64,000 nt of DNA from Botryllus schlosseri (taxonomy: Eukaryota): NCBI GenBank assembly GCA_051294905.1, contig CM119371.1:310001-374000 (forward strand). Reading direction: 5' to 3'. Both the position numbers and the translations under genes were made by a program. Each line of letters opens with the position of its first letter. Position 1 is the stretch's first letter. Shown here piece after piece: positions 8,527 through 59,058 of this stretch. Under the pieces are notes generated by a model. That model did not search any database, had not been told where the DNA came from, and saw nothing but the letters and a program-made list of their open reading frames with translations.

Positions 8527-8949
8527 TAGGTTTACCATACGTCCTCTTTTAAGAGGATTTTTCCTCTTTTTTGCTTTTTTGAAAGTGTTCTCGGAGGACG
8601 CCCAAATGTCCTCTTTTTTGAGATTTTGTCCTCTTTTTTGAGAATTTTGGTTAAATATATGGCAAAATCGAATGAGATACTGTAAATTAACACTGAAGCA
8701 GCACTTCAGCGGCTATTTCGGGAGACCAGCCGAAACGTTAACTATTTTGTTAGTCAACCAACTGATAATGTGAAAGGAAAAACTGTATTTTAGGTGCTGA
8801 GTGAGAAAGTTGACCTGTCTTTTATTTTAGTTAACCGGCCGCGAAGTGGGAGAAATTTACCATTTTTTCAGAATTTTCCTCCGGTTTTGCAAGTCTGAAA
8901 ATTTTGAAAAAGTGTCCTCTTTTTAGATTTCCAAAATATGGTAACCCTA
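8527..8949. mobile_element. hAT-like MITE with TAGGGTTACCATA ends and GTCCTCTTTTT repeats (relatives at ~38700-38809 and 46803-47078)
   Basis: Inverted termini and shared internal sequence among the copies. The 46803-47078 copy has TSD attgacaa/attgacac. Confidence 0.75.
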
Positions 8950-9543
8950 CTTCTTACAAAATCCTAGAAGTGTGTCGTGCTACTATAGTCGGCGGTTACG
9001 TAATGACAAATAAGAATATCAGTCTGGTGTAAACGACCATTGTAGTCGACAAACAACATGATTACCACAAACGACATTAGGGTGGTTGATTACATCGTGA
9101 ATGTCGATAATGCAAGTCTTCTCGCTTCGACGAACTTACGCGTAAGCTCCACTCTCGCACACTGCACATACACGAAGGCTATATCATAACATACAGTCAC
9201 TAAAATTTGACGGAGTAAGCAAGTAGTGGGAATTCTCGGCAGACTGGGGCCGCGGGCCAAATTATCATGTAAGACGTCAATCTCTGCGTGGGCCTTACAA
9301 AATCCCTTCGCGGACCGGATTCGGCCCGCGGGCCGTATGTTGCCCGCCCCTGATATAGGCTATAGTCATGCGCAATGACTAGAGCAGTGGTTCCCAACCT
9401 TTTTCCAGCCACGTACCATTTTGAGGTTTTATGCAGTGCTCGCGTACCACCTATATAAGTTACTCGCGTTTCCACCATTTATGACGTCATACTCACGTAT
9501 TTGGCCTATGCGAGGTGTATTAACAAATTCTATTAAACTAGGC

Positions 9544-10821
9544 CAGGGATGTCAAACATACGGCCGCCAGACGATTTTATCCGGTCCGCATAGCAATTCT
9601 GAGTACATTGAAAAAAGATTATATTATACATCACATCCACATTAATAAACCAAATTATAACGTCCGCGTTGACAGTTAAATATCTTATATTCATCACAAC
9701 GCATACGCAGGGCTAACGCCAGATTATGACTAACGCAGGGGTGGCCAACCTTTTTGCCATTCACGGCCGCATTTCGACCACTCGCGTAGCCTACGGTTGT
9801 ATTCCAGGGCATAGTCGTAATGAACGAGCTGGACGCCAAATACCCAGGTTAAAGTGTCTATGTCCATTTCTGGTGTACTCCGGACAAATCTATTTAATGA
9901 TAGGCTTACTATGCGCACCAAAATCGCGAGTGGTCACTGGTAATGTTAAGGAAGGAAGTGCTCATAGTGGCGCGAAGCGCGAAAAGAATTCAGATTCACC
10001 AATGAATATCGTCATTGATATTAGTAGTTTTACATATTACCATCAAACATTTATCCTTTCTCATCCCGTGTGATCAGATTCACTGATATAGAGTTGATGT
10101 AGGGGCGTTTTCGAAAATTTAAAGCAAGTTATAAATTATGATGCATCTTCGGGTGGGCCAATAGGTATTAGTCACTTTGTAGCATGCTGTTATTTCTTGA
10201 CCTCCCATCAGGATTGTTAGTATAGTGAGGAGCACACGATTCCGAGCTGATATTTCCATGTGAGGCGCATCATTTTCACTGATGTTTGCATCTGTATTGT
10301 GGGGCTCTGATTGCAAAGGGTGATACTGTATAAAAATCGAAAAACGTAGTTGCATTGAATCGCGCGCAGCGTGAAGAAAATTTCAAGATTAATTAAAATC
10401 TTTCAAGAAATCGGGATTCAATTCGGAAATTCGAATTGCATGTCGACGGCCACCAACACATACTAATTGAATTCCGTGTCTACGGCCGCAGGTTGGCCAC
10501 CTCTGGACTAAAGCAAAGGGAACACTGAAATATGACTACTTGTATCGCCGGTAATGCCATTGTTTTAGCGGTTCTTAACTGTATTCAACCGGACAAACAT
10601 CGTATTTTCGACAATTTCATTGCTCGCAAATATTGGTGTTGCGACTCGCTAGAATGAAACCCCTACGGTCCGTGTATTATCTATATATGCTTGATAATAA
10701 AGTATTCCAGCGAGAAGCAATGGCACGAGGCAACATTTTGGATTCCGTTGACTGGTCCGGCCAGCGAGCGATTTCATGACTTCGATCCGACCCGCGATGC
10801 AATTTGAGCTTGACACCTCTG
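9544..10821. mobile_element. Non-autonomous Buster-type hAT element
   Basis: CAGGGATGTCAA...TTGACACCTCTG with perfect TSD AACTAGGC. Confidence 0.88.
9736..10505. mobile_element. Buster-type MITE nested in 9544-10821; same family as 21858-22396
   Basis: CAGGGGTGGCCAACC...GGTTGGCCACCTCTG with TSD gactaacg/gactaaag. Internal similarity to 21858-22396. Confidence 0.88.
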
Positions 10822-10937
10822 AACTAGGCATTATCAGCCAGGGTTGATGGAATGTATGGAATTGTGTTTTTCACCACCAGTCATAAGAAGAACAACATAA
10901 TGAAATAAAAACACAGCACAACAAAAAGTCAATTTAT

Positions 10938-11147
10938 TTACTGCGATGGCTGTACTTGTTTATTTTCCACTAGCTTGTCGATGCGTGGCATACGTTTGCT
11001 TACAGCGCATCGAAAGCCATGTATGTTCGCAACAAGTCGGTTTCGTTTCTTCGACTTGATAGCCATCAGGGGTGAAAATCCTTGCTCGCATTCCCACGTA
11101 TAAGGGAAAATTAGCAGCTGGGAAATAGCGCGGGACGACGGCTTCAA
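10938..11147 (-). pseudogene. C-terminal fragment of a Buster/Charlie (ZBED8/FAM200-like) hAT transposase
   Basis: LLIFPYTWECEQGFSPLMAIKSKKRNRL...RCAVSKRMPRIDKLVENKQVQPS matches the Buster-family C-terminus. Confidence 0.85.
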
Positions 11148-12025
11148 AAAAACTCAAAATCAACCTCACCTGAACTAATTACTCCCTTCGGTCGAAAAAA
11201 GCAGAATCTACTCGCGTACCACCTGGAAGACCTTCGCGTACCACTAGTGGTACGCGTACCACAGGTTGGGAACCACTGTGATACACCATGCGTTAGTACA
11301 ACGACGAAGCCGTTTCTGCTAGTGCGGAATAGTGTTGTTGCACACAGGCGAATAGCTTATTTTGAAAAAAAACAATAATTTGAAACTGACATCAATTTCA
11401 GCATTCAACCGTCAGCCACGTGTTGCACATCTATCCATAGATTAGTTATCAATACCTATATCTATAGCTACTGTTCGGTCAACTGGAAAGTTACACAGCA
11501 CATTGCATTGAAATAGCAGTGACGTAACGTTAGCAGTCTTCTCACAACTTTTCTGCAATCCTAGTTAAAACTCCAGAATCAAAGCAAGAGGCTTGGATGC
11601 ATGATTATGCATTTTTGTTTTACTTCTAATCCAATTCCTGGTTTTCCTGTAAAGGCGACTGTAGGCCTATTGTGTGAAACAAGCCAAGCTTGCTGTACGG
11701 TACAGACATTTGCTATTCTCATGTCCTTAATAAGAATGGACCATGATTTGGAACTTGATGCGATGTCCGAGTTTTCTCGAATTTAGTCATTTTAATCTAA
11801 TTTGTATACAAACTGTAGCTATAATTCTAATTTAAATCTAATTTGCAGACAACTGCTGTGTAGCTATAATCCTTACTCTACTCTGATTCGGAAATATATC
11901 TAACTGTAATTCCAATCTAATCAGGAAAAGCTAAAATATTTCTAATTGTCCAAGTCTTTTTGTGAAGTCCTTGTCAGGTATGATCGTTGCACTTGAATAA
12001 TTCTGTTTGTATATTATGATTTCAG

Positions 12026-12185
12026 ATAGCTGGATTCAGCTCAGTTGGAGGCGACACAATTGGCCAATCTGTCAGATCCATCATGAAAAAGGTCGCTACT
12101 ACCCGTGTGTGGAGCAGTTACAGCCGTGTTGGAAAATCTGAGAAGGAGGCTTTTAACAAGCTCGCGTTGTACAAGATCATATATA
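12026..12185 (+). pseudogene. Isolated DUF4806-like exon, probably a transposon accessory-gene remnant
   Basis: ttcag|IAGFSSVGGDTIGQSVRSIMKKVATTRVWSSYSRVGKSEKEAFNKLALYKIIY|gtgag matches the GG...V+.IM+K+....(W/Y)S..G...K.AF..L pattern I associate with DUF4806. Neighbouring exons were not found. Confidence 0.6.
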
Positions 12186-12734
12186 GTGAGCAACATTTAT
12201 GTTTACCTTCGAACCTATCTATATGTGTTCAGTAGCCTACCTTAGACCCCATGTAAATGTTGAGCTAGCTCAGTGGTTCTCGAACTTTTTTGACAAGCTA
12301 CCTTGACAATAGCTAAAATCTTCGCCACCACCCCTTTATCGTCATATCAAAAATATTAAAACGAGCAGCCAGAATATTAGCGACCCCAACACATTGTTTG
12401 GCGGCATGCAGGGCATTCTGGCTACACTATGATACCAGCCTGAACTATCGCGTCTCCAGCAGGACTGTCGTGTGTGCGCAGCGTGTGCGAATGTTGGCCT
12501 GACCGCGGACTTTAGGCTTTTGATGACTAAAATATCAGTTCCGACATGTTGGCGTAGCCAGGAGCCATCTTTGTATATGACCATAAAGTAGAATATCTCG
12601 TAAAGGATTTATTTGTCTTGATATTTTTTTAGCGCTGCGCTCGATTTATTGCCAATCGATTTCTTGCTTTTAGTATTGATGTCTCCTCCTGAAACGTCTT
12701 ATTTACGGAATTGATATTAGCTATATTCGCAATT

Positions 12735-13635
12735 ATGCGAGAACGTGTCGTCCGACATACGACTTCGCGTCTGCACTCGCGAAAAGATCGTCGGCGATGA
12801 AACCTTTGCACAAAGTGATAGACGCACTTTCACTGAACTCTTCGATATTGATACGTCCAAGCGTTGATTAATCATGTCCTGGCCAAATGAGCCCAGCAGT
12901 TTACAGCGTCGACCCACAATATATGCAACTAACAATGTTTTATTGACCTAATTCTTTCATTAACTTTAATAATATTTTCGCGCTTTGCGCGACTAGGACA
13001 TGTTTTCATGACATAATTGTTAACGATTTTGATGTGTGGTAATATGAGTCCTTTTTTACCGTTACCTATAATCCGGTTCGTTCCTATCGAACGACTAAAA
13101 AAGCACATCAACATTCAAGTGGCCCACGCAATGGTTTGGAAATCTCATGTGGCCCGTTGGCCGAAAAGGTTGGCCACCCCTGATGTACGGTATCAATAAA
13201 TTTTTGTCAATCATTATTCAATCGATTAACCAATTCAGTGTCATGGTTCAGTTATTCAAATGTAACACGATGTAATGTTATTCAACAGAATGTTATGTAA
13301 TTTAACATTGCAAGTCTATTATGGTTAGTGCAGGGGTGGCCAATCGTTTTCAAAAGTCTATTATGGTTTGTGCAGGGGTGGCCAACCTTTTCAAATTTTT
13401 TCAAAGTTCACGAGACAATTAGGTCAATGAAATAATGTTAGTTGCATATATTGTGGGCCGTCGCTGTATACCGCTGGGCTTATTTGACCAGGACATGATT
13501 AATCAACGCTTCGACATATCAATATCGGAGAGTTCAGTGAAAGCGCGTCTATCACTTTGTGCAAAGGTTTCATCGCCGACGATCTCTTCGCGAGTGCAGG
13601 CGCGAAGTCGGATGTCGGACGACACGTTCTCGCAT
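12735..13635. repeat. Inverted pair of same-family hAT MITE fragments (~12735-12955 vs ~13413-13635)
   Basis: Near-identical ORF-track translations on opposite strands (MLVAYIVGRRC...). CAGGGGTGGCCAACC termini at 13182 (-) and 13373 (+). Confidence 0.85.
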
Positions 13636-14691
13636 TCCATTTTGCTGGGTAAAAGACGGATTAATCGGTCATTTATCTTCAATCAAATAATATAAAGTTA
13701 AATATAAATGCAAAATGCGTTTTATCACTCACACGTAGAACTGCTAATAGCATATGTGAGTAACTTTATAGCTACACGCTACGTTCTATTATCAGCCGAA
13801 ATAGAGGATCGAATACAAAGCCTCGAGAAGTTGCAATAAATTGATAAGGGACAATATACTACCCTTCCGTGAGAATAGGGACGCATAGACAATATTCGTT
13901 CGATTTAAATTATACAGGAGAGTTGGTAAAAGATAGCACCGCGCAATTTAACCACTGTGCTGTCTGAGAAACAAAGATACCTTGCTAACAGAATAAACTA
14001 CTACTACGACGACAACGCAAGCATAAGCTGTGACCGTTTCGTTTGCGGTCAATTAAATTATGATGTAACAACAGGATCAGTGAAAGGTGCGATCAGTGAA
14101 TGGCTGTTTGCTCTCACAAGTGATACCGGCATATCGCAAAAAATCCGAACGTACATAAGATATAGGGTGATTTAATTGACACCGTTTACTTCACCGTTCA
14201 CTTGATTACTTGAAATTGACTCGTGAATTTTACTCCGAGTCACGAGTCAATCCATATATCTCGAGCGCCGAGTCGAGTCAAGTCATTTTTGCAAAGTGAC
14301 TCGAGTCATCCCAACACTGCGTAGTACTAAGAACTATCTAAACAGGATCGAGCATGTCTTTAACATTCAATGTTGTTGTTTCTCTGTAGGGTTCTATGAG
14401 GAAAAAGGCAGAAAGCAGCGTCTTATCCTCGTCATCAGAAGATGAAGAAGACACATAATCAGTTGGCTTGATTATTTTTTCATTCGCTTCTTTGACATCG
14501 TTTCGTTCTGAATTATTTTCTTTGAGTTTCGTTGACACTGTTTTATGTATGAATTATAAGTTCATCAAAGGCAATGTGTACTGTGATACGTGTATGCGTC
14601 CGCAGCCACCGTCAGGTATGCCTAAATATGGGAATACAGGGATGTTAGTATCTCAGGATGTTTTTCTGACCATCGATTGTACGTTCTAAAG

Positions 14692-15092
14692 CAGTGGTTC
14701 CCAACCTTTTTCGACCCATCGCCGCCTTTTCAAGGTCAACACCGATCATCGCCCCCCAAATTTTGTGCACCGATAATTGGTCATACATACTGTAATCACC
14801 GGCGGGTTGACTAAAAAAAAAAAAAAAAAGGTCATCTTTCACCGCTCAGAGCTGAAAATAACGTTTTGTCGCTCCGCATTGCTAGGTGGATGACTAAAAA
14901 AAAAAAAAAAAAAAAAAAAAGGTCAGCTGTTTTTTCGCGTCATCGCCCCCCTATCGCCCCCTTCGCTATTTTCGCCCCCCGTCGCCCCCTTTGTCCATTT
15001 TCGCCCCCCTGTCGCCCCCTTCGTCATTTTCGCCCCCCTAGATCGCCAAATCGCCCCCTGGGGGGCGATATCGCCCACGTTGGGAACCACTG
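14692..15092. mobile_element. Young Buster-type MITE with TCGCCCCC arrays and two poly-A tracts
   Basis: CAGTGGTTCCCAAC TIRs and perfect TSD TTCTAAAG. Confidence 0.92.
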
Positions 15093-15295
15093 TTCTAAAG
15101 CATTGTAGATACACAGTTTTATCTACGTTTTATTAACGATCCCGATTTGCTTGAAGAACGCGTTAAAACGCGTCGACACAAAAACCGACTTAAAACTATC
15201 CTGCTAGTCTTTAACATGAACCAAATAAAAACGTTTTTTAACCTCAATGGGCTGTTTCGTGTTTGCTGGGACAAGATCAATGTTGAGGGTGAGAT

Positions 15296-16367
15296 TAGGG
15301 TTGCCATACGTCCGGAATTTCCCGGACATGTCCAGAATTTCACTGTTAAAACTGCGTCCGGGAGGAATTTCCAAAATATGCCTAAATGTCCGGAATTTTG
15401 AAGGCTTGAAGAGAGCTCACAATTTTTTCGTAAATCAGCATAAACAACATTATTTTTGAGCAGATTTATGCTACATGAAAATTTTCTTCGCGCTGCGCGC
15501 GATTTAGTATATAATGTATGTTGGTTATGAGGACTAAACACCATCGCAAAAACTGCGATAAAAAATAACTAAAAATAACATTCATTTACAAAAATAAGTC
15601 TAATTGTAATCGCAATTAAAAGATAACGTATATTCATAGAGTCGGCTTAGGCCATTTGGATGCTTTATTCAAATATAGACGTTCTAAATCTGTGGTAGTT
15701 TGCCTTTAGTATGGGGTAATCAGCTTCGAAAATAGACCATGAGTAAGTCTGGAGAAATATGCCAACCTTTAATTATTAATCAGCTCATCAAATTTTGAAC
15801 TGGACCCCGGAACATTTTCGAATTGGAAATGAAATCACGACCATAAAAGGTCGGAAACCCCCGGATGTGCGGCGTTTATATAGCTCGGTGGTGCAGTGCG
15901 CATAATCTTATCGGTGTGGCATGAACATGACTTAGCGATGTACAATTACGCTCATTACATTTCCGAAGTCATCATCCTCCACCAGGTCCACCGCTAACTC
16001 GCTGATCATGTAGTATATCGAAGAACCAATATTATTGATATAATTCATTCAAATAATTTAACGGCCAAATGCATTTAGTAAGCCCCCACAATTTGCATCG
16101 ATTAACTGACGGTGGACCCAAGATCAGTGTTTATTTTGTCGGGAAGGGTGCTGAAAAAAGTGTGGCTTCGGCCCTAGTTACAACTTACAACATACAACCA
16201 CATACTCCTGAACTGGATCATGACCACTGACCACCTCTAGTTGATAGACAAAGCTTTGCTTGTGTGACGTCATCTTGATCGACAATGTGCTCATACCGCA
16301 TTTTGAAATCCGCTAGGGGGCGCTAAAGAGCGTCCGGAATTTGTCAAACCAAAATATGGCAACCCTA
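15296..16367. mobile_element. Non-autonomous hAT element
   Basis: 13-bp TIR TAGGGTTGCCATA, GTCCGG subterminal repeats, perfect TSD GGTGAGAT. Confidence 0.92.
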
Positions 16368-42160: not shown

Positions 42161-45100
42161 TTTGAGAAAATTAATGCGATAATTATAATTCTACTATAAT
42201 TTGGAAATAACTGTGTAGCGGCAATTTTTATTCTACTATATGTTGGAAAAAATTGTAACTGTAATTTCAGTTTGAATTCGAATTTGCAAAAGCAGGAAAT
42301 CTTCTAGATGACCGAGTTTGACTGAAACTTAATCTGGAATCTTGTCGATTTGCAGCACAACTCTCGAGCTCAAGGCGAGGGGAACGGGAAATTTGTAAGT
42401 TGTCACTTGCGATTACACAATAAAAGTATTCGACAACCAGTCACAGTAATAATATTTGAAATTCACATAGGCCTACTCCAGTACTTTTCAACCTTTCATT
42501 TAAACTATTGATACTTGCACCCGAGGAAGAAATGATTGGGATCACTCCAACTTCTGTTCGAGTTTAATCAATGACTATTTTGATAGTCTCTTTAGAAATT
42601 ATGTGACAACCTATTACGACCAATAACTCTATTTATTTCACCCCCAGCAGCTAAACAATCCCGACGCATTAATTATCGACCTACGCCGTATTGACATATA
42701 AATTCTTCGAGTATCTCATCAAATCTCAGTTTCATAATACAACAAATATTTCTTCCGATAAAATGAAATCTGTGTGATCTGAATGCAGCAAGTAATCAGG
42801 AATTGAAGTGACGCATTACTGCCGAAGATTAAATTTAGTATATATTGACAGAGGTGGTCGGTAACCAACTATCTCCACTTTTTAAAAGTATAAAAGTACG
42901 GTTCGCCCACTTACACAACTTACTTAAGTAGTTATTAGTTCAGACTACTTTTACTTCTATTTGACAACTTTCATTTTTTTTCAGCAAAACTAGGAGTGAT
43001 GTGAAAAGTATGTTGCGACTCGATGTGAAATGATGCATGACAGCGCTATTATATTCTTGCAGAATAAACCAAGTCTTTTTTTTCACAAAGCTACGTGTCA
43101 TGCACACCGTGTCAACGTTATGATGTCACTATCCGACATCACATCAGTTAATATTGTATATTAATTCAATTAATACACAGTTTGCGTCACAATATTTCTA
43201 AGCTGTTGTTTGAAACCGGATGTGCATGAGAAGGGATCGACGATGTAATGGAAGGATAAATCTCAACTCTCATTTTAGAACGGTCAGACTTCGTAAGATC
43301 TACTCACCTATTATAAAAATCGTAGTCGAGTCGCTTCCAGGCAGCCGTAGCTCGGAACACTGAAATAAGAAATAAGTTATATAGCTTAAAATGCTTGTTA
43401 GCAAAATATGTATGCATCCCATGCTCTGTTGCTGAGCCTATTGCGTTATATCTGAAACAGTCATCAGGCTCGAAGAGAGTTGAAATCATTAAAAAATATA
43501 AATGAATTGTGTGCTACGATACACGGTGGTTTAGTTATGGTAAGTAGACGTACTGAACCTGCGCTTATCTACTAATTCAAATCCGAATCCTATTCCTGAT
43601 GATACATCAAAAGCCAAGTATTTAATTTGTCTTGCGTCCATATCCTCGTCTAACCTGCCATCAATTACAATTTGTATGCCGATTTTTCGGCTCACAAAAT
43701 TTGGGGGCGATGATCGGTGTGGTGCTTGAAAATGGGGCGTTGATTCGAAAAATGTTGGGAAACACTGATCTAAAGCCAGGCAAAAGAGATGACACGTGAC
43801 CTCAATACCATAGAGATGCATAAAGTGGATTCGTAACATCGTGAAATTATTTGTTATAGTTTCCGTTCAAAAGCGGTGGCTTTCAAAGGGAACATTGCTG
43901 CGGCCAAAATGTTTTTCATACTCTCCACTTTCATTTCAGACAACATTATATTTAGAGCGCAGTGTCGTTTTAATGTGTTATAGTTTTGTCAGTGGGCAGT
44001 GAAATAAGAAATCACACACAATATGATGCCCAGGCAGTAGAATGTATATTACGTATATCTAATCCAATTAGATATGAGAATGAGTGAAAGTAACTCTAAT
44101 CCATTTGTAAAACATTCCCTGCAATATGCAGCTAATTATTTACATATTGTCAATCGATTCAAATCACTAAATTTATATTCGATTTATATTCGCACCGGTT
44201 CCACGTTCTGTGAGATACTTTCACAGAACGAATATGAACTCGCATATTCGTTTTCGTATCAAAGGTAAATCGAACAAAGTAATCCCGAATGCTATTTTAA
44301 GAATTATAGTACTTGATTAGGTTGGACAAAACGATTTCGGAATTAATGCAATGTTGTTGATTATAATTCAGTTCTACCTAAAAGAATGCACAATGCCCAT
44401 GAATGATGAAATGATTCGTATCAACGCCAATATAAAAAGTGAGATGCTGTATGACATAAAACCACGAATCCTACAAAGAGGAGGTCAAGAACGAAGTAAC
44501 TCTACTTTATCAGACTACTCAAGTAGTGCTGTCTACTTGCATCGATTAATCAAGGGGTTGTCATTTTAGACTACTTCTGTTTCTACTTCTTGTCACAGTT
44601 GTTAGTCAAAACTACTTACTTTATACAATATTGATTTTGTAAAGTATCAAGTTGTTCCTAGCTGCGTATTCGTCATCGTTTTCAGTGAAATTCTTATAGG
44701 AGCCGCCTTAAATGGCCCATGTATCACGGTAACTGCATGAACATATTTTCAAAGATTCCACTCACTTGCAGTGTCATTAGTCATTTTGCATTAGCCGCGA
44801 AGATATATCTTGCAATTTCGAAAGTAGATAACTCCTATAAACTGCTAAAAGTATGCGGTCCTTCGACCAAATCTACTTTTTGAAACTACTTATTTGACTA
44901 CATTTCAGACTAATACATTTTCCACTTCCACCTCAAGTCCATTTGTTATTTCTTGGAAATTGCTACTTCAACTTGTATATCAGCGGCAGCTTACAACGCT
45001 ATTTATCGTTCTACATGAGTCTTAACTTCGACTACTCTGACTACCTCTAATCATTCATGAACTCGTGTTAGCAACTCTCAGAACCTATCAGAGTCGGTTT

Positions 45101-45735: not shown

Positions 45736-48058
45736 AATATAAAACTTCCAACTCAGTATCGAGATCATTTGCAATCTTCCAGACTTTCTGCAATTCGTTT
45801 CCTTTCAACATATCATCTTTATCGTAATATATCAATGTTACTTTCTTCAAATTTGAGTTGTTGACGAGAGACGAAATCTCATCGAGTGAAGGACGATATT
45901 CTTCTTCGAATATGCATCTGATATATTCGATCTGCGGTGAGAAATTATGACTATTAGTACTATGTCTTACAATTATGCTTACCACTGTGGTTGACTATTT
46001 GACAAGGGGCCATGATGTTTTACAATATACTTTAGATCATGGGTGTCAAACATACGGCCCACGGGCCGCATCCGGCCCTCTAGGATATTCTGAAAAAATG
46101 GCTGTATTATCTGGCACATTTCTAACAAATGTCGAGATTTTTACTACGAAACACTTCCACTCTCCCAAGACAGAAAATGTCGAGCATGTTCATAGTAGAG
46201 GTCGACCGATATTGATTTTGACAGGCCGATACCGATATATATCGGTACACTCACAAGGCTGATACCGATATCATAGGCCAATATTAATACAGAAGGAGCA
46301 GAAAACAATTTCACCAAAAATATTATATATTAAGCAAGAGAGCACTTGTTCATGCTACAGAAAGCAGAAAAACAAACGAGAAAACTGCAATTGAAAACAA
46401 TTATTGCTTTATTGTAATTTGGGATAACCCAAAAAGCAAAACATGATACATTATTAGGGATTATTCCAGGAAAGGTAGATTGTAATGCAGAAAGCATATA
46501 TTTTCTCTGCATGCTCACCCAGTTAAACTCGTCCTGCATGGTTAAATCAGTCATATATCGCCTTTTGCGTCGTAGATTTCTTGTGATTGAGAACACAGAG
46601 CATTGAATTTCCGAAATTTTTGAATTTTTTTAAAATATAAAATATCGGCCGCGAAGCGGGAAAGCTCTAAATATCGGCTTCGATAATCGGCCATGTCGAT
46701 AATCGGTCGACCTCTAGTTCATAGGCCAAATTATAACCATCCGACAGTGGTGTTGAGGTTAGACTGTAGAGAACATCAGCAACAAGTCAATGCAATTGAC
46801 AATAGTATTGCCATATGCCCTCTTTTTTGAAAGTGTTCCTGTTTTGGAAATTTTGGTTGAATGTATGTGAAAATTCAACTGAGAAATTGGAAATGGGTAC
46901 TGGAGAAACTGTCCGGCGGGTCTTTCGTGAGCTGAGCCAAAAAGGTGACCTTTTTTTATTCAATCAACTACAAACTTGGAATAAATTTACCAATTTTTCC
47001 GGATTTCACTCCTGTATTGTAAGTCTGAATTTTTTTTAAAAGGTTTTTTTTTCAAACTCCCAAAATATGGTTACCCTAATTGACACTCACTTCAGAGAAG
47101 GCAAAAAAGTGCTCAGTGAGTTCACAGTTTTATGGAAAAACGGACCACAAAGTATAGTTTTCTGCAGAAGTGGATAATATAATTGTGACACCAAAATATA
47201 ATTTAAATATCTGTGGTCGCACTCCTTTTTCGCTTATGACTCAACATCTCCTTGGCTGCCGGAGAAACCCGAATCGCGATGTAAAAACGATGAACCAAAT
47301 TTCAACGTCTAAGTTTACGTTAAATCGCTTGTATTCCTCACAACGCATAAACAGGACTATATTGTCAGATTCCGGCAAAAACAAAGCTATCATTGCAATA
47401 TGAGAACATATATTGTCGGTGAAGCCGCTGTTTTAGCAATTTATGAAACTATTTAACCGGCCAATCATCGTAATTTCGCCAAGTCGGTATTTTGCGAATA
47501 AAGGTATTGATGGAATAGAACCAGATTGCCCGTGATATAACGCAATTATTATAATGCGTATAAGTTTTATAATTGAGTATTCAAGTGAAAAGCAAGGGTA
47601 TTGATTTAGAGGAAATATTTTGGAATCATTTGACTGGTCCGGCCCGCGAGTGCTCTGAAGGGTTGAATCCTACCCGTGACGCCAGTTGAGTTTGACACCC
47701 CTGCTTAAGATGAACAAATTGCCGGGAACCACAAACTCTGCAACTGCGGTGGATATCTCGGGCATGGAATATAAGTTAATTCATGTGGAGGGGACTCATA
47801 TTCTGCGGCAGAATTCAATGATAAACGTGCGATGGTGGGAGAAGAACGTTCTATATATCCAATGCAACTAATACTGGATGATAAGTACTACCTTCTTTTG
47901 CTGACAAGCTTCTAACATCTTCCTGAATTCATCTGCTTTCTCAACGTAAAACATTGCATGGATATGAATGGGAACGGAAATTGCTCTCCCGCGCTCCAAA
48001 ATTAGTTTGTAATCATCTACGGGTATCTGGCCATTCACGGCAATATCCAGGAGATCCA
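45736..48058 (-). CDS. Probable host-gene exons of unknown product (~48058-47892 and 45931-45736); the upstream exon is cut by the hAT remnant
   Basis: Protein-like open frames LDLLDIAVNGQIPVDDYKLILERG...EACQQKK|gt and ag|IEYIRCIFEEEYRPSLDEISSLV...ELEVLY|gtgagt with matching phase 0. No family recognised. Confidence 0.45.
46038..47703. mobile_element. Buster-type non-autonomous element with two nested MITEs (46196-46716 and 46803-47078)
   Basis: CATGGGTGTCAAAC...GTTTGACACCCCTG with TSD ctttagat/cttaagat. Confidence 0.82.
46196..46716. mobile_element. hAT-type MITE with CCGATA repeats
   Basis: 15-bp perfect TIR TAGAGGTCGACCGAT and perfect TSD GTTCATAG. Confidence 0.93.
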
Positions 48059-48192
48059 ATTGCTCTCTCGCGTCGTACAATTCAGCGTCGGCAAGATGAT
48101 ATCGCCAAACAGTTGACGATCTCCCTGCAGACAAAGGTTAATGAGGAAGCAACTTTATTTTCACTGGCTATCGACGAATCGACTGACATTAA

Positions 48193-48408
48193 AGGGGCAC
48201 TGCGCTCAAAAAATGATGTGGTCTCAAATTGAAGAGTAGAACGAAAAAAAAATTTTGGCCGCAGCCGTTTTCTTCAGAACGCCACCGTAATGGAGCTGCA
48301 ATTTATTGAAATTTCCAGAGTTGCAGCAGTCGCGGCTCCGGATAATCTCTTAACCCGTAACATGGCACGATGACTTCATCGTCGCACTTGCTCGACGCGA
48401 TTACGCAG
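48193..48408 (+). repeat. Left TIR of the Kolobok (216 bp; degenerate extension to ~48470)
   Basis: Reverse complement of 56832-57047 with one mismatch seen (ataatCtctt vs ataatAtctt). After an 8-bp indel, weaker similarity continues for ~60 bp. Confidence 0.95.
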
Positions 48409-48818
48409 AGGACGAACTTTAGATAGTTGTCAGTCGATGTTATGAATGACTCATGTCTTGCACACCAAGGCGGCGCTCAACGTACGGTGTTAGGTCAGGA
48501 GGATTTGTGTCTGGAGCTTGTCACGACTCTATAGTATTTGCCAGTTGAATGATACTGAGATGCCGTTACAGTTGTATATTGATGCAGATACAGCTGTCAT
48601 TTTCAAGATGTATTATTGACTGCACAGTGCACAACCTTTGGAGTAGTGGTCTTGCGGAAGAGACAGACACATGATATTTTGCATCATTTACCCATGGCAT
48701 AGCAACTGTCTTGATACTGTCTAGTTTACTTGTTCAAGACACAGATGTATAGATAATCAACACGAAAATTTCATTCTCATCAAAGTTCCAATATTGTTGT
48801 GGAATTTTTTGTCGTAAC

Positions 48819-51800
48819 TAGGGTTCCGGTAAATATCAATTTGCCTCTGATTCGAAGCGATAAAATCGATCCATAATAAAAACCATGATTTTTTTGATTT
48901 TTATTACTATTTTTACTTAGAACAACTGAAACAACAACAACAATGAGTTTGAGACGATTGAAAATCATCTAAATGAAGGTGCTGCTGCAAATCTCATCAA
49001 CTGAATAATTCGAGGCTCTGAATCTTCATCTGCGTACTGGAAAATATTCAACCCAGCAGAGAAATGTTGGTGACTAGGATTGTCCGATATCTGTTCTAGT
49101 ACCAATCCGACATGTTGCGTCAAATCAGCAGCATCCGTAACGGTTGCATCTTCAGTAGCATCTTCATCATGAGCATAGCTGTTGATGTCTGGAGTGGTCT
49201 CGGCCAGCAAGGCGTTGATTTTTCTCATCGCCTTTTCCACTTTGCCAGTTCCAGAGTCAGTATCCATGAAGTGATCTTTCACTCGAAGCATAACTTCAAG
49301 ATTTGTTTGTGTTAGGCGATTGCGACTCTTGGTTGCAGTTGCTGCCGCAGATGACCAAAGCCTCTCACAAGACGCAGCATGTGGAACGCACGAAAGAACA
49401 GTCCTGGCGAGTTTTGAAAGTTCCGGAGAAAGAACAGCTAAATCCTTCCAGAATAATGCCGGCCGTGCCGTTAAAAACGGTACCCAGATAGTGGATTCTG
49501 CATCAAAAACTCCTAAAAAAAAATCAGGGTAATATCAGAAACGTGCAGTGATAGGTGTGCAGTGTGCACTGGTAGACTCACCTTCTTTACAATCATAGTC
49601 GAACCAGTGTTTGATGAGGTTAGAAGCAGATTCATCATTGAAGCTTGGTTCTATTTTTGAAAATATTTTTTTGGCGAGATCCCGAACAAGCCTTTTGCCA
49701 GTCATGTTCAAGCCACAGCCTCTAACTCGGGGATCTAGAACCCAGGCCACTAGATGATGGTCCTCGACATAGTTTTCTGTTCTTCGTTGCATCTTTGATA
49801 AAACCAGACTCTTCTCATCAGCATCCAGAGCGGTAGTCTTTTTTATCTCAAGCTTGAGCCACATCCAGCCTGATAGGATTAGCCCAGCGGAAGTATTGTC
49901 CAATTCTGAGATGGCTGTAAAAATGCAAGATTTACGATTCAAACATTTCACCTGTTAACTCTTAGTTAAATGTTGGGGAGTAAAAAGAACTACAATCCTT
50001 GTTGTTTCCATTAATAATCAAGATGTTCAAATTGATCATGTATTGTGGTGTAGCGGTAATATGGTAATATCAGTTTATCATCAAGGAATGCAACTTATTT
50101 ACAATATAATTTGAATGAAGTAGCATAGTTATGATTGCCAGTGTCGAACAGTCGTCTCGTTACTTTTTTGCTCAGAGTGTTGTTCAACTGCCTCAATATG
50201 AAGTTTTTCAGCAACTAACCAGTAATGACATAATATGGCTTGAGTAGACCATAGATCGCTTTAGTATCTTCCCAAAATTTCTTATCATTGATGATTGTTC
50301 GGACAGTACATGCACTCGCTGTATTCAAGTGCGGTTTCGACGTTTCTTGAACAAACACAACCTTCAAAATAAGATGACTTCATGCAAATGTCACAGAAAT
50401 CTATGAATTACTTACTTGAATAGCTGTTTCAACATTTATGACATGCTTCAATGTTTCAGAGAAGGAATACCATCTTGACTCGCTAGGTAACCACATGGGG
50501 ATCTTTTCCCGGCCCATATATCGAGAGATTGAGCTACGGAGAGCAACTGATCGTCGGATGAAAGATGCAACAGTGATCACCTTTTCAACTATATTCCACA
50601 CACGACTGATGCCCATCAGGTCTTTAACGAGAAGATTCGACTGGTGAGCCAGACATGCACCTGTCAAGGTTATGCCCGATTCAGAATTCTGAAAAACAAA
50701 TCTCATGGTTATACTAACTCCAAAAACAATGATTACTATTAAAACCAAATGATACAGACATACCTGCACGAGCAATCGTCTCGCTTTCACATAAGCGCTG
50801 GCGCTATCAGACACAAAGTTGAGCAATAGTTTTCCATTGGATTTCATTCCAAGCAGTTCTTTTGCTTTTTGAGTGACATCTTGCACAATGTCTTCACTTC
50901 GTTTGGTTGGATCGGAGGGTTCAACCGCTAACAGTTTCTTTGAACCCAACTCATTAACAATGATCCAACTTGAAAAGCTGCAAAATAGAATTTGAGCATG
51001 TTTTATATTACCTAGATGAGATTTGCTATCAGACAGGCATGCATATTATGCAACATACTTTTGACTGGAACTACTTGTCCATGTGTCACTAACAATCGTC
51101 AGAGTATGAGCATTATTGACAAATTGTTCAATTGCAGTGGATACTTTTGAGTTGAGACCACATAGTATGGAGCCGGATGCCTGTTCTGCGCTCGGCAAAT
51201 TAAAATCTGGTCGCAACGAATGACAAAATCGTCTGAAATGCTCGTTGTTTAGCTGATTCCAAGGTATATTTCCTGTGTAAAATAAAACATGATGCGGGAT
51301 ATTATCACTAAAAAATGAATGTCCAAATGCATGAATACCTGAGATAAATGACAGAACAAGCGACTCGTAACTGGAATATTCTTGGTTCTTCGTCAAGGGT
51401 CTAGTCACATAGTTGGTTATAGTCTTCTGTCCAGAAAAATCTTGCTGCAGCGCATTACTAGAGCCTGGGCCTTCATCAGATTCTTGGAACTCTGACCTCA
51501 ACTTCTGAGGCGTCTTCTTGCAAGTCTAGAGATACAATAATCCACACTTGATTTATTAGACTCCATGACTGAGAAGGTTCAAGCCGTCAATGGAGCGTGT
51601 ACTTTCTTATACACAGCATGACCATGACAAACCACGGTTGCCGATATTAATATTGATTCATCACTACGGTATAGTGCGATCATTTATCACCCATACCCGT
51701 TGCCTCGAAGACTACCACACCTTACCCTAGCCCCAAACCTATCCTATCTACAATACCCCAGCCATAATTGCATGATGATACGTAACATCATAACCCTATA

Positions 51801-52585
51801 ATTATTGACGCCATAAGCTGAGACATGTTCATGGGGAACACTAGCTATTGATAATCTTGTAGTTGTGGATGATGAAGTAGGCTCAAAAGATGTTGTCTAG
51901 GACTATGTGCTAAGTATCTTTCGGTTGACGCGTTGCAGATCAGATATTACCACATCAAGCATAAGCAAGGGTTTTTAGATATGCAAAGAGAATTCGGTAG
52001 CAGTGCTGTGCCCATACCCTGTCAACGTATCACCATGCACATACAGTATTCAAGCGATTACATGAATTGGATTCACTCATAATACAGTAACATGGTATCT
52101 TACCTGCGTATGAGTTTTCATTCTGCTTACTTGACCCATCATATCAGCACCGCAATAAATGCAAACAGCTCTTTTGCTTCGCTTTGGCATTAGAGATGCG
52201 GGAATCTCCCGATATATACTCCAGATTGAGTTTCGTTTTCGCCCTCCCACCATCGCCTTGTAAACAGCAGCACCACGGACACACCGAATCAACAACAAAG
52301 CTCAAGAACTGGCTGATTACCGTCACCGCCTATTGCGAGCACTGTGTTCCCGCCTTGCCCTCGATTCGCTAAACCGTGCCGGTACCGGTGACGAAAAACG
52401 ATGTCCGGGTTGTGTCAATATACATTGGTTGTCCAAAAAATATATTCACGCGTCTTTTTAAAAATAAAAAATAAAAACCAAAAAATCATTTATATCAAAA
52501 CGGTAAAATTAAAATCAAAAATCAAAGGAAAAATCATGATTTAATCACACTGATTTAAATCAGCCTGATATTTACCAGAACCCTA
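48819..52585 (-). mobile_element. Autonomous-looking hAT (Ac-type) transposon nested in the Kolobok, 3767 bp
   Basis: 20-bp TIRs TAGGGTTC(C/T)GGTAAATATCA. Perfect 8-bp TSD GTCGTAAC at 48811-48818 and 52586-52593. A/T-rich subterminal AAATCA-type repeats. Encodes a full transposase. Confidence 0.95.
48965..52253 (-). CDS. hAT transposase (BED zinc finger, DUF659-like core, hAT C-terminal dimerisation region), 8 exons, 686 aa, apparently intact
   Basis: Exons 52253-52104, 51525-51339, 51272-51059, 50977-50764, 50688-50416, 50361-50220, 49914-49582 and 49512-48965 are all GT-AG, total 2061 nt, no stop seen. BED finger IW..Y...CIYC...MKTHTQTC. Core motifs TIVSDTWT, FVSDSASAY, CLAHQSNL, SESRWYS, LDPR and ASCERLWS...KSRNRL. 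Confidence 0.9.
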
Positions 52586-52698
52586 GTCGTAACATTGTTG
52601 TTCTCAGTTTCACAAACGAATCTTCTGTCTCCATCAGTTCATTCATGCAATTCCTTTGACACGTAGATATCGTAAAATTTGTTAAAATTATTAATGGT

Positions 52699-53642
52699 AT
52701 GGAAGAAGATCTTGTTGATGAATTAACTTCTGATGAAGATACAGATGTAGAAGATTTCGATGATATCACGATATTTGGTGAGAGCCTGCCGTATCAATTC
52801 GAGCCACAATATTCAGAGGAGGAATTCGCCCGTCTTGTTGCAACTCAAGAAGCACAAACTCATGTCTCTGTAAGTATTGTACCTGTGTTTCTTGAATGCA
52901 ATTTATCAATCTCATTGTATTGGTCAAAGGAATCGTCAGAAAACCAGAGTCAACTTCGGACACTTGACAACAATGAATGGTGCAGTTGCTTGAACTGTGC
53001 ATCCATGACAAACCAGAATGAACGCGTCTGCTGCAGGGAAATACAACAAATAATGTAGCTTCTGGGGAATGGAGGGTCGACTTGCATAACAGAACATGAC
53101 GATTTTCTCGTACATATACATCCCTCCATTCTTGAAACGTTTTTCAAAGTGAACAGGAAAAATTGGAATAATAACAATCAACCACATGGTCCTGGCAGAA
53201 GGCTTTCTAACAAGTGGGTCCTAGAACATTTTGTTTGTGTTGTTTAGTATTGGACTTATATGTATGCGACAGGGTCTTGGGACTTATGACATGGTTCCTG
53301 GATATAAACGGCAATCTCCTGCATTCTTTACATTTTCTCGCATGCTTTTATATAAATGCCTACACTTTATAAATTGGGAGCATTATACTGTCATATATAT
53401 GCTGCTATTACTTTTCAGCATTATTTTTATTGCTGCAATATACTTTGATTTTTTCCAATTGCAGACAATATCGCTTGGTGTCTTATCGACACATACTGGA
53501 ATGGATTATTGATGGCGACGTTTTGGGTAGCAAAAACAGGATGCCCTTGCCAGCCTGCATCGTGACTGCTATAAGGAAAAAGTACCCTAGTGATGATGGA
53601 CTGTATGTCGGTTTCAAATGGCCGATAGAAAACGAACTGTGA
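52699..53642 (+). pseudogene. KolX-like accessory gene (homolog of the P2X7 cytoplasmic 'ballast' domain), 3 exons (52699-52869, 52930-53213, 53465-53642), ~210 codons with an in-frame TAG at 53056-53058
   Basis: Acidic N-terminus with PYQFEP, then WCSCLNC...ERVCCREI...CITEHDDF and NKQYRLVSYRHILEWI...LGSKNRMPLPACIVTAIRKKYPSDDGLYVGFK, the motif series of the P2RX7 C-terminal/KolX family. Introns are GT-AG. The gene lies tail-to-tail with the transposase. Confidence 0.87.
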
Positions 53643-53942
53643 TTGATAACACTGCGGCTATGCTATATAAGTCGAAATCAGTTCTGTTGCTGTATTATTA
53701 CACAGTGAACTGGAACTGTTTGCATTCTATATTCCACGAATGCCTGCAGGGCCTGATACATCAAGACTTACTCGTTATTTATTAAAATTTATTAAAATAA
53801 ATAATAAAAAAGAAACATCAAAGGACTTTATAGCCAGGGTATTACAACGGGGCAGTCAGGCAGTGTGGAAGAATGAAATTGAGCTATTTAGCACTGCACC
53901 ACATTCCATTCAACTTGAAGATAGGGATTAGTAAGTCACGTT

Positions 53943-55662
53943 CTAGAACGACGTTGAAAGTAATTCCTCTTTAGAGGGGGCTGGTTCTGGTGCAATGCTG
54001 ACTGGATGCACACTTCTTGAAATGTTACTGGGAAAGTTGATGCCAGTGCAATTCTCAGTAGTTCGCCTCAAAAGCTCTCTCGCATAGTGGTTCGTCTTCT
54101 TTTCATACATGTTTTTCAAGATCCACTCTTTTGCTGACCGAGAGTAACATTTTTTGTATCGTGGAGCACCTGCTTAAACAAATAAAAAGTAAGTAGTATC
54201 GTGGAGCACCTGCTTAAACAAATAAAAAGTAAGTAACTAAGTACCTTGACTTGCAAACATTTCATCTGTACAGCAAACCTGCTCGTGTCACCGCCTGAAA
54301 TCTACCAACATTCTCATTGTGGTCCAGGACAGCCAATTTGGTTCGTGCAAGCATCGTGTCATAAGTAAAATGAAGACGTTTAGGTGCAAATTTCAATATG
54401 ACGTTGTGATAAACTTCCAATGATCCTAAAAAAGTAAGGTGTGAATTGTAATGATCTGACCATGCTCCGAAAACTGGTGTGCAGATGTGATGAGTCAAAA
54501 AATTACCAAAAAATTACCAGTATGTTTGAACAGAGTCATCTGCTCCAAATCCCGGATCAAACTTTTGTTTTCTATCAAAGATTTCAATGCTTTGAAACTA
54601 GGAGATCCACATTGCAACCATCTAGTTCTTAGGCACTGATCCCCAGTCAAAGTGCCATGGCTGCAGGAATATGTCTCCCCGTCAACTGTCCACTCATGTT
54701 CGCCGGTGATGTGATGCAGAAGAGATAACCATCTTCTTTTTAGCACCTGCAATTGCATATTGTTATATAAAAAGTTCCTAATTTGTGATGTCAGACATAG
54801 TTGATATGTAGACTTACACTGCTATCTTGACCACAATACTGACAGCACCACCACAAGTGATTAGTGATGCTTCTTGTCCATAGTAGCAAGTCTTCCATAC
54901 CTTTCTTCTTACCCAGAGACACCAACTTTTTTTTCAGTCCTGAGAAACGGTTAGTAAGGCAAAAGAAGATTCAAATAATAACAGTATTCAGTTACCTTTG
55001 CAGACATGCCACACATCAAACTGGTGATTGATTGATGGATATTTATCCTTCAACAATTTCCTGATGCTTGGTGCCCGGTCAGTCACAACGGTTTCAATCG
55101 GCAAACCTTGAGCAAGTAATGCATCCAAGGCACGCTCCATACCAACTTTTTCCATTGCAACACTGCTGGAGCACTCTGTTTTTTGAACCAATTCGACGTG
55201 GACAATCTTCTCAGTCTTCTCCTCCATAAATGAATAAACCATATATTTTGCAGAAAACCCAGGTGAGTCCGATCGCCCATCACCCATCAGTGTAATTGGT
55301 TTACATTGACCCTTCATGTCCCGTAAAACATCCTCCATATGTTCCTCATAGTAGGTCGCAATAGTTGGCAAAATGTATTGCGATTGTATTTCATAAAAAC
55401 GACGTTCCGAAATGTAGTTAGTGTCCAGTAATTTGAAAACATCTGCAATATCAGTGTACGTGGCTCCCGAATATATTGTCGCGCCAACAGTAGAAAGGTT
55501 CATTGCCGACATCTTTCTGATTTCTATCTTGGTCGACGAGATTCCTATGGCACTAAACCACTGTCGTCTTAGTGCAATTTCAGAAGGAATTTTATGAAGA
55601 GTATGCGATTCGTCATTCCTTTTGACATCACACGATGTAACGGCACAACTTCTCCATGTCAT
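53943..55662 (-). CDS. Kolobok DDE transposase, 5 exons (55662-54996, 54939-54818, 54746-54518, 54425-54279, 54169-53943), ~463 aa; THAP domain appears truncated
   Basis: All introns are GT-AG and phases join into an open frame. N-terminus is THAP-like (CAVTSC...LHKIP...RRQWFSAIG). Catalytic motifs GDGRSDSPGFSAKY, VVTDRAPSIRK, HQFDVWHVCK, NHLWWCC, HHITGEHEW and KHTG/SLEVYHNVILKFAPKR, then LAVLDHNEN. Confidence 0.88.
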
Positions 55663-56831
55663 TGCAGCTTGCTATAATGTCAATGTATATTCTATATACT
55701 ATTACGAAGACTCTGAGTAGAGCAAGACAATAACGTAGACAAGTGCTTTTCAACCTTTTTGAGCTCCATTCGTACTTTTTTTTTAAAAACAATTCAATTC
55801 GCACCAGCCAGCTGGAATTTATTACACAAAAAGAAAATGAAAAGCTTATCACTTTTTGTATTTGTAGACCTTCCTGTAGGTACAGAGCGTCATTATTTCA
55901 CATTTAGTGTATCGTATTGCTGATTAATCAAATACTAATATCACTGCAGTAGAAAATTCACAGATATCGCACTTCCGCTGTTCTCAAGGTCTTCGTTGCT
56001 TTTTCTGCGGGTATCGTGCAGTTATTTCTTTCGAAGCTTAAAGGGCGAACCCATGAACAATATTCACTCGCAACAATATCACTTTCCACTAAATCGACGT
56101 ATTATGTCAACGCTATATGAATGTGTGCCGAAATTCCAATACTTCGCATTCAAATCAACACTGGCATCGCACACTATTTCCTATAATGTAGGGTTATCAT
56201 ATTTTGGATTCGGGAAAGGAGGACGTTCGCACAAGTACGAACCGTCATACAGGTTGAAAAGCACTTTATTCTGTAGCCGTTTTTCAGAGAAACAGTAATT
56301 TCTTATCCACAACACGAATACCACCAGTCAGGGTTCCCCATGAACATGACAAAATTCATGACATTCAAAATTGGTGGTTCGGGTACTGTAGGAAAATTCA
56401 TCATCCCTAACCAAAATCCAACGGCACGCAAACCTAACCTGAGCCCACAACTCCGCAGCTGACCCTAAAACATATATAATATATTCATTATATTGTAATG
56501 TTACTAATCCCCAAGCCATAATTTTAAGATACTCTCAAACCCTCATCTTATGATTCTCCAACCTGAAGGCGAAACCAATTATGACCGCTCTGAATTTTGA
56601 AATGTTCAGAGGGCACACTAATTGGTGATGGTAATGTTTTATACATAACATAAGAATAGGACATGATCTATTCCTTCCCTCAAGAAATAGAATACACTAG
56701 GCCCGATTACTAGAAAAATCTAGTGACTGAATATCGTCCGTGGAACGCCGTATCTACACCACCTTGGCGTGTTAGACATATTTGCTTCAGAACATCGGCT
56801 GACTTCTATCTGAAGCTCGTCCTCTGCGTGA

Positions 56832-57047
56832 CTGCGTAATCGCGTCGAGCAAGTGCGACGATGAAGTCATCGTGCCATGTTACGGGTTAAGATATTATCC
56901 GGAGCCGCGACTGCTGCAACTCTGGAAATTTCAATAAATTGCAGCTCCATTACGGTGGCGTTCTGAAGAAAACGGCTGCGGCCAAAATTTTTTTTTCGTT
57001 CTACTCTTCAATTTGAGACCACATCATTTTTTGAGCGCAGTGCCCCT
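56832..57047 (-). repeat. Right TIR of the Kolobok (216 bp; degenerate extension to ~56762)
   Basis: Reverse complement of 48193-48408. Confidence 0.95.
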
Positions 57048-59058
57048 TTAAGGACTCTGCACAATTATTGATCTTCATACGCTCTCTGTCTCCAAATTTT
57101 GAGTTCTGCGAAGATCTGCTCTCAATGGAAACACTCTCCACCCGCACTCGTGGTGAAGACATATTTGGGACTGTTAAGAATGCTTGCATTCGCAATGGAT
57201 TAGACTTGAAAAATCTTCGCGGTATTTGTACAGATGGAGCACCTGCAATGCTAGGTAACACAAATGGCTTTGTGACAAGATTTTCAGAATTCGTGTCGAA
57301 AGAGTACGATAATAACCAGCTCACAAACCTTCATTGTATTATCCACCAAGAAGCCCTGAGTGTCAAATCTGTTGCCTTAAGTGACACTTTGAAAGACGTC
57401 AATCGCATCATCTTGTACATTCGTGCAAATGGTCTTCATCATAGGCAATTTCAAGAACTTCTGCAAGAGCGCGAAACGTCGGCAGAAGACATTCTCTACC
57501 ACGCTGCAGTTCGTTGGTTGTCCCAAGGAGACACATCTCGTCGTGTTCTACAGTTGCGAGAAGAAATACTGGAATTTTATTCCACAAAAAATAAAGACTG
57601 CCCCTTACAAAATGAGAGCTTTGTCATATATTTGGCGTTTCTTGTGGATTTTCTGTCCCATGTTAACATTTTAAACCGAAGCCTACAAGGAAAAAAGCAA
57701 CGATATGCACCATGTACAAAAAAGTATCGGATTTTCGTGACAAATGTCGTCTCCTTAAACTTCATATTCAGCAGCGTAATTTTTTCCATTTTACACAACT
57801 TAAGTCTCTCATCGACAGCTGCGAAATAAAGGTAGAAAAGATTCCGATCACTTTATTTTCGGGGATTTTTGATACTGTGTTGCAGGATTTCGCAGATCGT
57901 TTCAAAGATTTCCAAAAAATCTCACATACATTACGACTTGTTGCCTTTCCACACCTGGTGGAAACGGAAAGTGCTCCGCCACACCTTCAGATGGAGCTGT
58001 TGGAATTGAAGAATGATGAGCAGCTTGTGACAAAGTTCTAGTGCGAGGAAAATTTGATTGACACGTGGAAAATGGCCCATGAATATCCACTTTTGCGAGA
58101 ATTGGCTAGAGAAACTCTTGTTATTTTCGGAAGCACTTACGTGTGCGAGTCTGCCTTTTCGCAAATGAAATACATGAAAAACGAGTACCGAACTCGCTTG
58201 CTGAACGGAAACCTAGAGTCGCAACTAAGACTTATGGTGTCGCGTGAGGTTCCCAATTTTGCAAGTTTGTCATCTCGTATGCAAAATCAAGGAAGTCACT
58301 GATTTCAATGTTAGAGACTTTCCTTAAATAAATTCGTTTCAAAATATGTTTGGTATTTATTAGATATGATAAGATTAGTAGATATTAAGTTTTTAAACAA
58401 AACTAAAATGTCTTCCGAGGGCGGCCAAATGTCCTCGTAGGCAATTATACCGCGTCTTTGTGCTAGTGGATTGCACCAAAGTTGCGTGAAATGTGGATTT
58501 CGGCATTAGCGACGGCAATGGGTATGGCTGACTTTATCAACCCAATGACGTTAACGGGTATTTCGGGATTCAAAACGGAAGATTGAGATTTTTTTAGTCA
58601 ACTCACATATGGCTGGCGGCCGTATGGCGTCGAAGTATTCGAAATGCGGCCGTGGACGCCAAAAAGGTTGCCCACCTCTGACCTATACCTATACGCGTGC
58701 GAATAATTGAATACGCAATTTCGTCGGCGACGACGAACCAGTGCTTAAAACGCCCCAATAATTTGTAATCCGTCATTAGTAATCAGACAATCGAAGCAAC
58801 CTCGTTTACGACGTCAATTTCGACACGCTTGCGCTGAGATATACAATCTTTTCTCTCGACCAGACGAGCGAATTCACGTTCTCCTTCTCTTAATTAAATT
58901 GTATTTGCGCCCATTTTATTTACAAAATAATTCTTGAGTTAGTTCCGCGATAGTCTCTTTAATTAGAGGCTTGGAGCGCGAGAAGGACAGTGTGCTTGTG
59001 TATGCCTGCGAATTGAAAGTCATTCCTGCACAACGTGGGCATATCCATTACTCTAACT

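Follow-up and report, generated by a model that had tools for sequence, protein, structure and literature searches.

Here we analyse a window of 64,000 nucleotides of Botryllus schlosseri DNA (GenBank assembly GCA_051294905.1, contig CM119371.1, positions 310,001 to 374,000 of the forward strand; all coordinates below are positions in this window) and find that 48193-57047 is occupied by a Kolobok transposon with two genes, one for a transposase and one for KolX, a protein related to the cytoplasmic ballast of P2X7. With a probability of about 0.85 we read it as one copy of a young, high-copy, transcribed Kolobok family of the Kol0 lineage, nested with other transposons and damaged in both genes. 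The first-pass annotation of the window had called the element complete, which we cannot maintain: a hAT transposon lies in the KolX leader, KolX contains a nonsense codon, and in the transposase one half of the THAP domain is missing along with a conserved zinc-finger module. Region 48409-58000 was compared with the contigs of four public runs, namely X1, presumed to be DNA, X2, which carries a second organism label, and the RNA-like runs X17 and X8; joints, break points and letter differences are those among the matches listed, and contig counts are lower bounds.

Borders and terminal repeats

The element is flanked by TTAA on both sides (48189-48192 and 57048-57051), and many contigs of other copies diverge directly after the right-hand TTAA. 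Its termini are AGGGGCACTGCG...CGCAGTGCCCCT or, read further inward, AGGGGCAC...GTGCCCCT, giving AGGGG...CCCCT. The inverted arms, identified in the sequence and by blastn, comprise 216 nt each and occupy 48193-48408 (plus strand, starting with AGGGGCAC) and 56832-57047 (minus strand), with exactly one mismatch between them (48347 C vs 56893). Beyond the arms inverted similarity extends ~72-80 nt inward at ~77% identity with an 8-nt indel, reaching ~48473 on the left side, and blastn gives 289 nt at 91.7% for the inverted similarity in total. An arm of such length and identity cannot arise by chance. A search for internal short repeats in the arm found none, and direct repeats within the element are no longer than a 40-bp tandem.

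Joining the flanks via a single TTAA yields a continuous reading frame of an older hAT-like gene (...AIDESTDIKDSAQLLIFIR... / ...FSLAIDESTDIKDSAQLLIFIR...). Nothing else speaks as strongly for exact borders and for a duplicated TTAA as this restored frame. The full span is 8,855 bp; without the nested hAT (48819-52585) and a single copy of the 8-bp duplication that flanks it, 5,080 bp remain. Our measurements reproduce what had been noted beforehand on the TTAA duplication, the AGG...CCT ends, the 216-bp inverted repeats with one mismatch, the exact borders with a reconstructable empty site, and the length of 5.08 kb for the reconstructed element.

Classification

Kolobok elements duplicate TTAA, have 5'-RR...YY-3' ends and encode, in the Kol0 lineage, a transposase and KolX; this two-gene plan and the link between KolX and the P2X7 ballast were published in 2022 (Kojima & Bao 2022, PMC9587614; this and the other papers named below are cited from excerpts, to which the statements taken from them are limited). 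The element described here has the TTAA duplication, RR/YY termini, the D/D/E and DxxH motifs and an H2CH finger, and its second gene, KolX, encodes 7 Cys and a domain resembling the ballast, although this gene is interrupted by a TAG. Kojima and Bao cite Kapitonov and Jurka (2007) on Kolobok. The earlier assignment to Kolobok is supported by the TTAA duplication, the RR/YY ends and a catalytic core collinear with Kolobok_1_XT1p and, judged by its sequence, the element is a further family of the KolX-bearing Kol0 lineage.

Compared with Kolobok-1_XT, the type of Kol0, the element shares TTAA, RR/YY ends, DDD/E and DxxH, the zinc finger before the last E and a KolX with 7 Cys. It differs in being a separate family, whose best protein relatives are 51-67% identical, and this copy differs further by its truncated THAP domain, the loss of the N-terminal zinc finger, the KolX stop and the nested hAT. 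KolobokP elements belong to the same superfamily, but have terminal direct repeats of ~450 or 660 bp and a His-Me nuclease (PMC9587614), whereas the element studied here carries inverted arms, lacks long direct repeats and encodes KolX where KolobokP has the nuclease.

For the ends of Xenopus T2-MITEs (miniature inverted-repeat transposable elements) an AGGRR/TTAA rule has been described (Hikosaka & Konishi 2018, PMC6004289), and the end sequences of T2-MITEs/XKol are tabulated there as 16 nt. Our element resembles these in its TTAA target, the AGGRR motif (AGGGG here), the plan of DDE, THAP and H2CH, and the many short non-autonomous derivatives with common ends, but there is no close sequence relationship. 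Palindromic internal repeats are described for the Xenopus MITE Kolobok-N2_XT (PMC12676858), so that Kolobok derivatives with extended inverted structure have some precedent. No figures for the arm lengths of Kol0 families were found in the literature, Repbase/Dfam entries being outside this comparison.

The KolX gene

KolX lies on the plus strand (52699-53642) and is convergent with the transposase gene on the minus strand (55662-53943). Exon 1 (52699-52869), starting with the ATG at 52699, encodes an acidic N-terminus in 57 codons; exon 2 (52930-53213) contains the Cys cluster C-x-C-xx-C...CC...C and matches positions 63-101 of the Pfam family P2RX7_C; exon 3 (53465-53642) matches positions 143-192 of the same family and contains the stop codon. 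Both introns are seen as contig joints with GT..AG borders: 52869>52930 (60 nt) in X17, X8 and one X1 contig, and 53213>53465 (251 nt) in X8. Once spliced, the frame amounts to 210 codons, 7 of them for Cys. The left subterminal region (48409-48810, plus strand) is covered as KolX leader, at least over 48619-48810, by an RNA-like contig (X8 record 25). Since a single X8 contig leads from 48619-48810 via a hAT-free junction through the three KolX exons to 54096, the KolX leader begins no further downstream than 48619 and encloses the hAT.

Comparison of the spliced frame with sibling proteins revealed an in-frame TAG at codon 100 (53059-53061, plus strand), a position that is Lys in both siblings (P0045 and P0195; 97% identical; unspliced gene models). 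Splicing out the TAG would require an 18-nt intron, and exon 2 is continuous in the RNA-like contig. On this comparison the stop appears, so far, to be specific to this copy.

Both coding parts of KolX match P2RX7_C in Pfam above the cut-off of 23.5 bits (25.6 and 27.0 bits). Against solved structures exon 2 gave a chance-level match with phmmer (E 0.5) and exon 3 matched P2X7 at E 0.006, with its last 31 residues aligned to P2X7 residues 567-597; a profile built from 30 KolX relatives, 24 of which match P2RX7_C, aligned to P2X7 residues 470-594 with an E of 3.9e-13. The Pfam matches and the profile thus sustain the initial view that KolX resembles the P2X7 ballast. Zebrafish Nanor has been proposed as a domesticated KolX (PMC9587614), and with the P2X7 ballast and Nanor the KolX found here shares the Cys pattern and the C-terminal motif LP.C...IR..(F/Y)P...G.Y.GFK; unlike P2X7, KolX is free-standing, ~210 residues long and transposon-encoded, with an acidic N-terminus and no channel domain. 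As anticipated in the first-pass annotation, such gene pairs are prone to mislabelling: one KolX relative, in Ciona, goes by the name 'P2X purinoceptor 7-like', and 'uncharacterized protein' is the label of most relatives of the transposase, which calls for caution in annotation.

As a side observation, the KolX and transposase gene ends are ~300 bp apart (53643-54169 in the window), and the contig that extends from KolX to 54096 enters the last transposase exon. The 3' ends of the two convergent transcripts may thus overlap, although these contigs carry no strand information.

The transposase gene

Five transposase exons, all on the minus strand, were placed with the help of homologues of 675-742 residues (best 51% identical; fish, crinoid and limpet). 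Exon 1 (54996-55662), defined by Pfam and homologues, encodes half a THAP domain fused to the catalytic core with the first D, the second D and DVWH. Homologue alignment places the ITNHLWWC motif in exon 2 (54818-54939), the H2CH zinc finger (HH...C.H) in exon 3 (54518-54746) and the third catalytic residue (HTGSLEVYHN) in exon 4 (54279-54425), and homology and GT-AG sites define exon 5 (53943-54169) with the stop codon at 53945-53943. The spliced gene is an open frame of 463 codons with GT-AG at all four introns. Aligned to homologues of 675-802 residues, the core contains GDGRSDSPG (first D), VVTDRAPSIRK (second D), DVWH, ITNHLWWC, H2CH and HTGSLEVYHN (E), an order which, compared by eye, is collinear with that of Kolobok_1_XT1p in Data S5 of PMC9587614, with the H2CH finger likewise after DxxH and before the last E.

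Kolobok transposases usually carry a THAP DNA-binding domain, with C2CH and an AVPTIF-type box. In the Pfam scan Mutator/MULE matches stayed below threshold, and the THAP profile was covered at positions 1-42 of 87 only, with neither the AVP box nor the second Cys..His present. The prediction of a THAP-DDE transposase therefore holds for the DDE core (D, D, DxxH, H2CH, E), but for only the first half of the THAP domain. At the end of this half, at ~55525-55531, ...GISST runs straight into KIEIRKMSAMNL, and a segment of ~200 residues in the homologues is missing, made up of the remaining part of THAP, an acidic/Ser-rich linker and the module CxxC...W.C..H..W.S. A strict pattern detects this module in 22 of 44 homologues, in each of them at a distance of 121-123 residues ahead of the first-D motif. 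This copy, with its first D at residue 127, has no such module. An RNA-like X8 contig (record 28, 934 nt) aligns with 55142-55525 only and has 553 letters on the upstream side that do not fit this copy, behaving as expected of a full-length transcript from another copy. We read the truncated THAP domain as damage to this copy.

A joint at 54167>54277 (109 nt) is consistent with the last transposase intron, and joints with CT..AC borders, as for a gene on the minus strand, were found in X17 and X8. With GT-AG introns in both genes, several of them present as joints in transcriptome-like contigs, the description of a spliced convergent pair is upheld. An exact 40-bp tandem duplication (54156-54235), detected by the repeat search, duplicates the acceptor of the last intron together with the first 14 nt of exon 5; the upstream acceptor copy, if used, would shift the frame.

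Copies, derivatives and transcripts

Contigs whose match extends to 57051 and which continue in unlike sequence number at least 49 in X1, at least 13 in X17 and at least 4 in X8. A shared end with unlike flanks is expected if many copies sit at different TTAA sites, and the departure of contigs in all three runs directly after TTAA agrees with the dispersed, TTAA-flanked copies that had been predicted. In X1 the depth is 133,813 in the terminal bin and ~1,700-15,600 in internal Kolobok bins. Contig breaks accumulate at 56923 (51) and 56925 (49), indicating that many derivatives have only the outer ~125 nt in common. Deletion derivatives are seen as joint 48678>56770, present in all four runs, and as joint 48446>56813 with 13 extra letters between, present in X17 and X8. 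The region upstream of the transposase ATG (55663-56831, minus strand) reaches 3-8 times the abundance of the catalytic core in the DNA run.

The same region contains a 22-nt inverted pair (55741-55762 and 56245-56266, 91%). Contig break points lie nearby, at 55742 and 56224-56226, and the X1 depth spikes to 63,055 at 56248. The region of the pair may be a separate, very abundant short repeat; a nested element was not called here, as there is no flanking duplication.

Pieces of the element also occur under a second organism label (X2, X3, X10) at >99% identity; pieces in X2 differ at 1 position in 520 nt and at 1 in 313 nt. A close relative, common descent of the family or transfer could account for this.

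Nesting of the three transposons

The nested hAT transposon (48819-52585, minus strand; 3,767 bp), delimited by Pfam matches and contig joints, has the ends TAGGGTTC(C/T)GGTAAATATCA and is flanked by the 8-bp duplication GTCGTAAC at 48811-48818 and 52586-52593. Pfam recognises in it a BED finger together with the RNase-H-like region and the dimerisation domain of hAT, and it is located within the KolX leader, ~100 bp upstream of the start codon. Contig joints skip it in X8 (48810>52586, with 8 shared letters) and in X1 (48809>52587), showing other Kolobok copies without the nested hAT, and thus the hAT arrived after the Kolobok family had spread.

The Kolobok in turn splits, within its reading frame, an older hAT transposase gene of GTF2IRD2-like type (47927-48192 and 57052-58302), the relatives of the restored outer frame being GTF2IRD2-like hAT proteins with a best identity of 76%. 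The three-level nest of hAT in Kolobok in hAT gives the relative order of the insertions: the Kolobok would have landed in the reading frame of the older hAT, and the second hAT would have inserted into the KolX leader afterwards. The transposase would have lost the second THAP half, the linker and the CxxC...C..H module through an in-frame gap.

With its BED finger, RNase-H-like and dimerisation parts the nested hAT appears nearly whole. In the RNA-like runs a joint of 69 nt with CT..AC borders (49511>49581) and another of 1,688 nt (49650>51339) fall within it, so that it seems to be transcribed and spliced too. The outer hAT gene is highly repeated, with a depth of ~27,000 in X1, and its C-terminal hAT-type part is at 58042-58302 in another frame.

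Alternative explanations

Several observations weigh against the reading as a damaged copy of a transcribed family. That X17 and X8 are RNA is only a guess. Of the three transposase joints listed, two do not start from the donors placed by homology: in 54743>54832 (88 nt), an out-of-frame form, the donor lies 17 nt further upstream, and 54938>55142 (203 nt) keeps the frame but takes out 49 residues, the second D and DVWH among them. Both are found in X17 and X8 and, among the joints listed, not in X1; canonical transposase joints may or may not exist beyond these, and the form skipping 49 residues may be a catalytically dead isoform. No near-identical full-length sibling of the transposase was found, the best relatives being 51% identical among longer proteins and 67% identical at similar length, so that the N-terminal gap is deduced from distant homologues and one contig that aligns only in part. 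The alignment with the 67%-identical relative starts after the junction. The strict pattern moreover finds the zinc-finger module in only half of the 44 homologues, many of the others being partial gene models.

If the short N-terminus were native to the transposase of this family, the element could be complete and autonomous. The open frame of 463 codons, GT-AG at all four introns, the presence of catalytic core, H2CH finger and C-terminus, the nearly perfect ends and the transcription of the family would all be in line with this. We nevertheless consider it improbable, given the TAG in a KolX exon that is continuous in an RNA-like contig and encodes Lys at this codon in both siblings, the 18-nt intron needed to bypass it, the half THAP domain without its second Cys and His, the missing zinc-finger module that keeps a fixed distance in 22 of 44 homologues, and the hAT within the KolX leader. 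A different origin is conceivable in that piggyBac-type elements also target TTAA and a KolX-like gene occurs in a few piggyBac families. The ends of piggyBac are CCC...GGG, and its transposase is of a DDD type of its own. Here the TTAA duplication would fit, but the AGG...CCT ends follow the RR/YY rule of Kolobok, the Pfam scan gave no match to a piggyBac family, and the transposase is collinear with Kolobok_1_XT1p; in addition, KolX has 7 Cys here and the piggyBac forms are said to lack most Cys (PMC9587614), which leaves a piggyBac element very unlikely.

There is hardly any chance that the two genes are a non-mobile host pair, P2X7-like and THAP-domain, flanked by inverted repeats by coincidence. 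Databases list relatives of both proteins as ordinary genes and domesticated Kolobok transposases are known in Xenopus (PMC6004289), but a depth in the thousands in the DNA run, differing flanks after TTAA and deletion derivatives are features of a mobile family, removal of the element restores the interrupted hAT frame, and both genes are damaged. Within the reading as a damaged Kol0 copy, we also entertain, as a rather doubtful extension by analogy, that the family is a Kolobok counterpart of MuDR, with arms that would act as landing pads for the transposase and as twin promoters. MuDR of maize is ~5 kb long with arms of ~215 bp and two convergent genes, for a transposase and an accessory protein, and makes 9-11-bp duplications. 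Size, arm length and gene arrangement are thus alike, as is the C/DxxH signature that Kolobok and MuDR have in common (PMC9587614), whereas the target duplication is TTAA here and the MuDR accessory gene is unrelated to KolX. The 216-nt arms are near-identical and the next 70-80 nt have drifted to ~77%. If the analogy were true, the form skipping 49 residues would be a catalytically dead regulator of transposition, and the ~290 nt of inverted similarity might be the longest reported for the KolX-bearing lineage.

Proposed transposition cycle and implications

By comparison with the family (PMC9587614, PMC6004289) transposition would proceed by DDE cut-and-paste with a 4-nt staggered cut at TTAA, the ends being recognised via THAP and zinc-finger modules and KolX serving as a zinc-binding accessory factor. 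The transposase would bind the long terminal repeats, excise the element and reinsert it at TTAA. As the DNA-binding modules and a whole KolX are missing, this copy most likely depends on intact siblings and cannot move by itself; with its intact ends it could still be mobilised by them. Long Mutator inverted repeats contain transposase-binding sites and promoters (PMC3310237). The long arms of our element may likewise hold binding sites and promoters for the two inward-facing genes: convergent genes and a leader reaching toward the left arm suggest, by analogy with Mutator, that the promoters lie within the arms or beside them.

In mechanism the element brings nothing new in kind, and it is an ordinary, well-preserved example. 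As a clean, exactly bordered KolX-bearing Kolobok it is a starting point for locating an intact, possibly active copy, which could serve to test the role of KolX, the proposed ancestor of the P2X7 cytoplasmic ballast.

Surroundings of the element

Outside the three transposons the window contains only four open reading frames of at least 130 residues. A diverged relative of the Kolobok end is present at 43874-43971 (74.7% over 91 nt), ending in ...GCGCAGTGTCGTT followed by TTAA, and probably marks the end of an older, related element or MITE.

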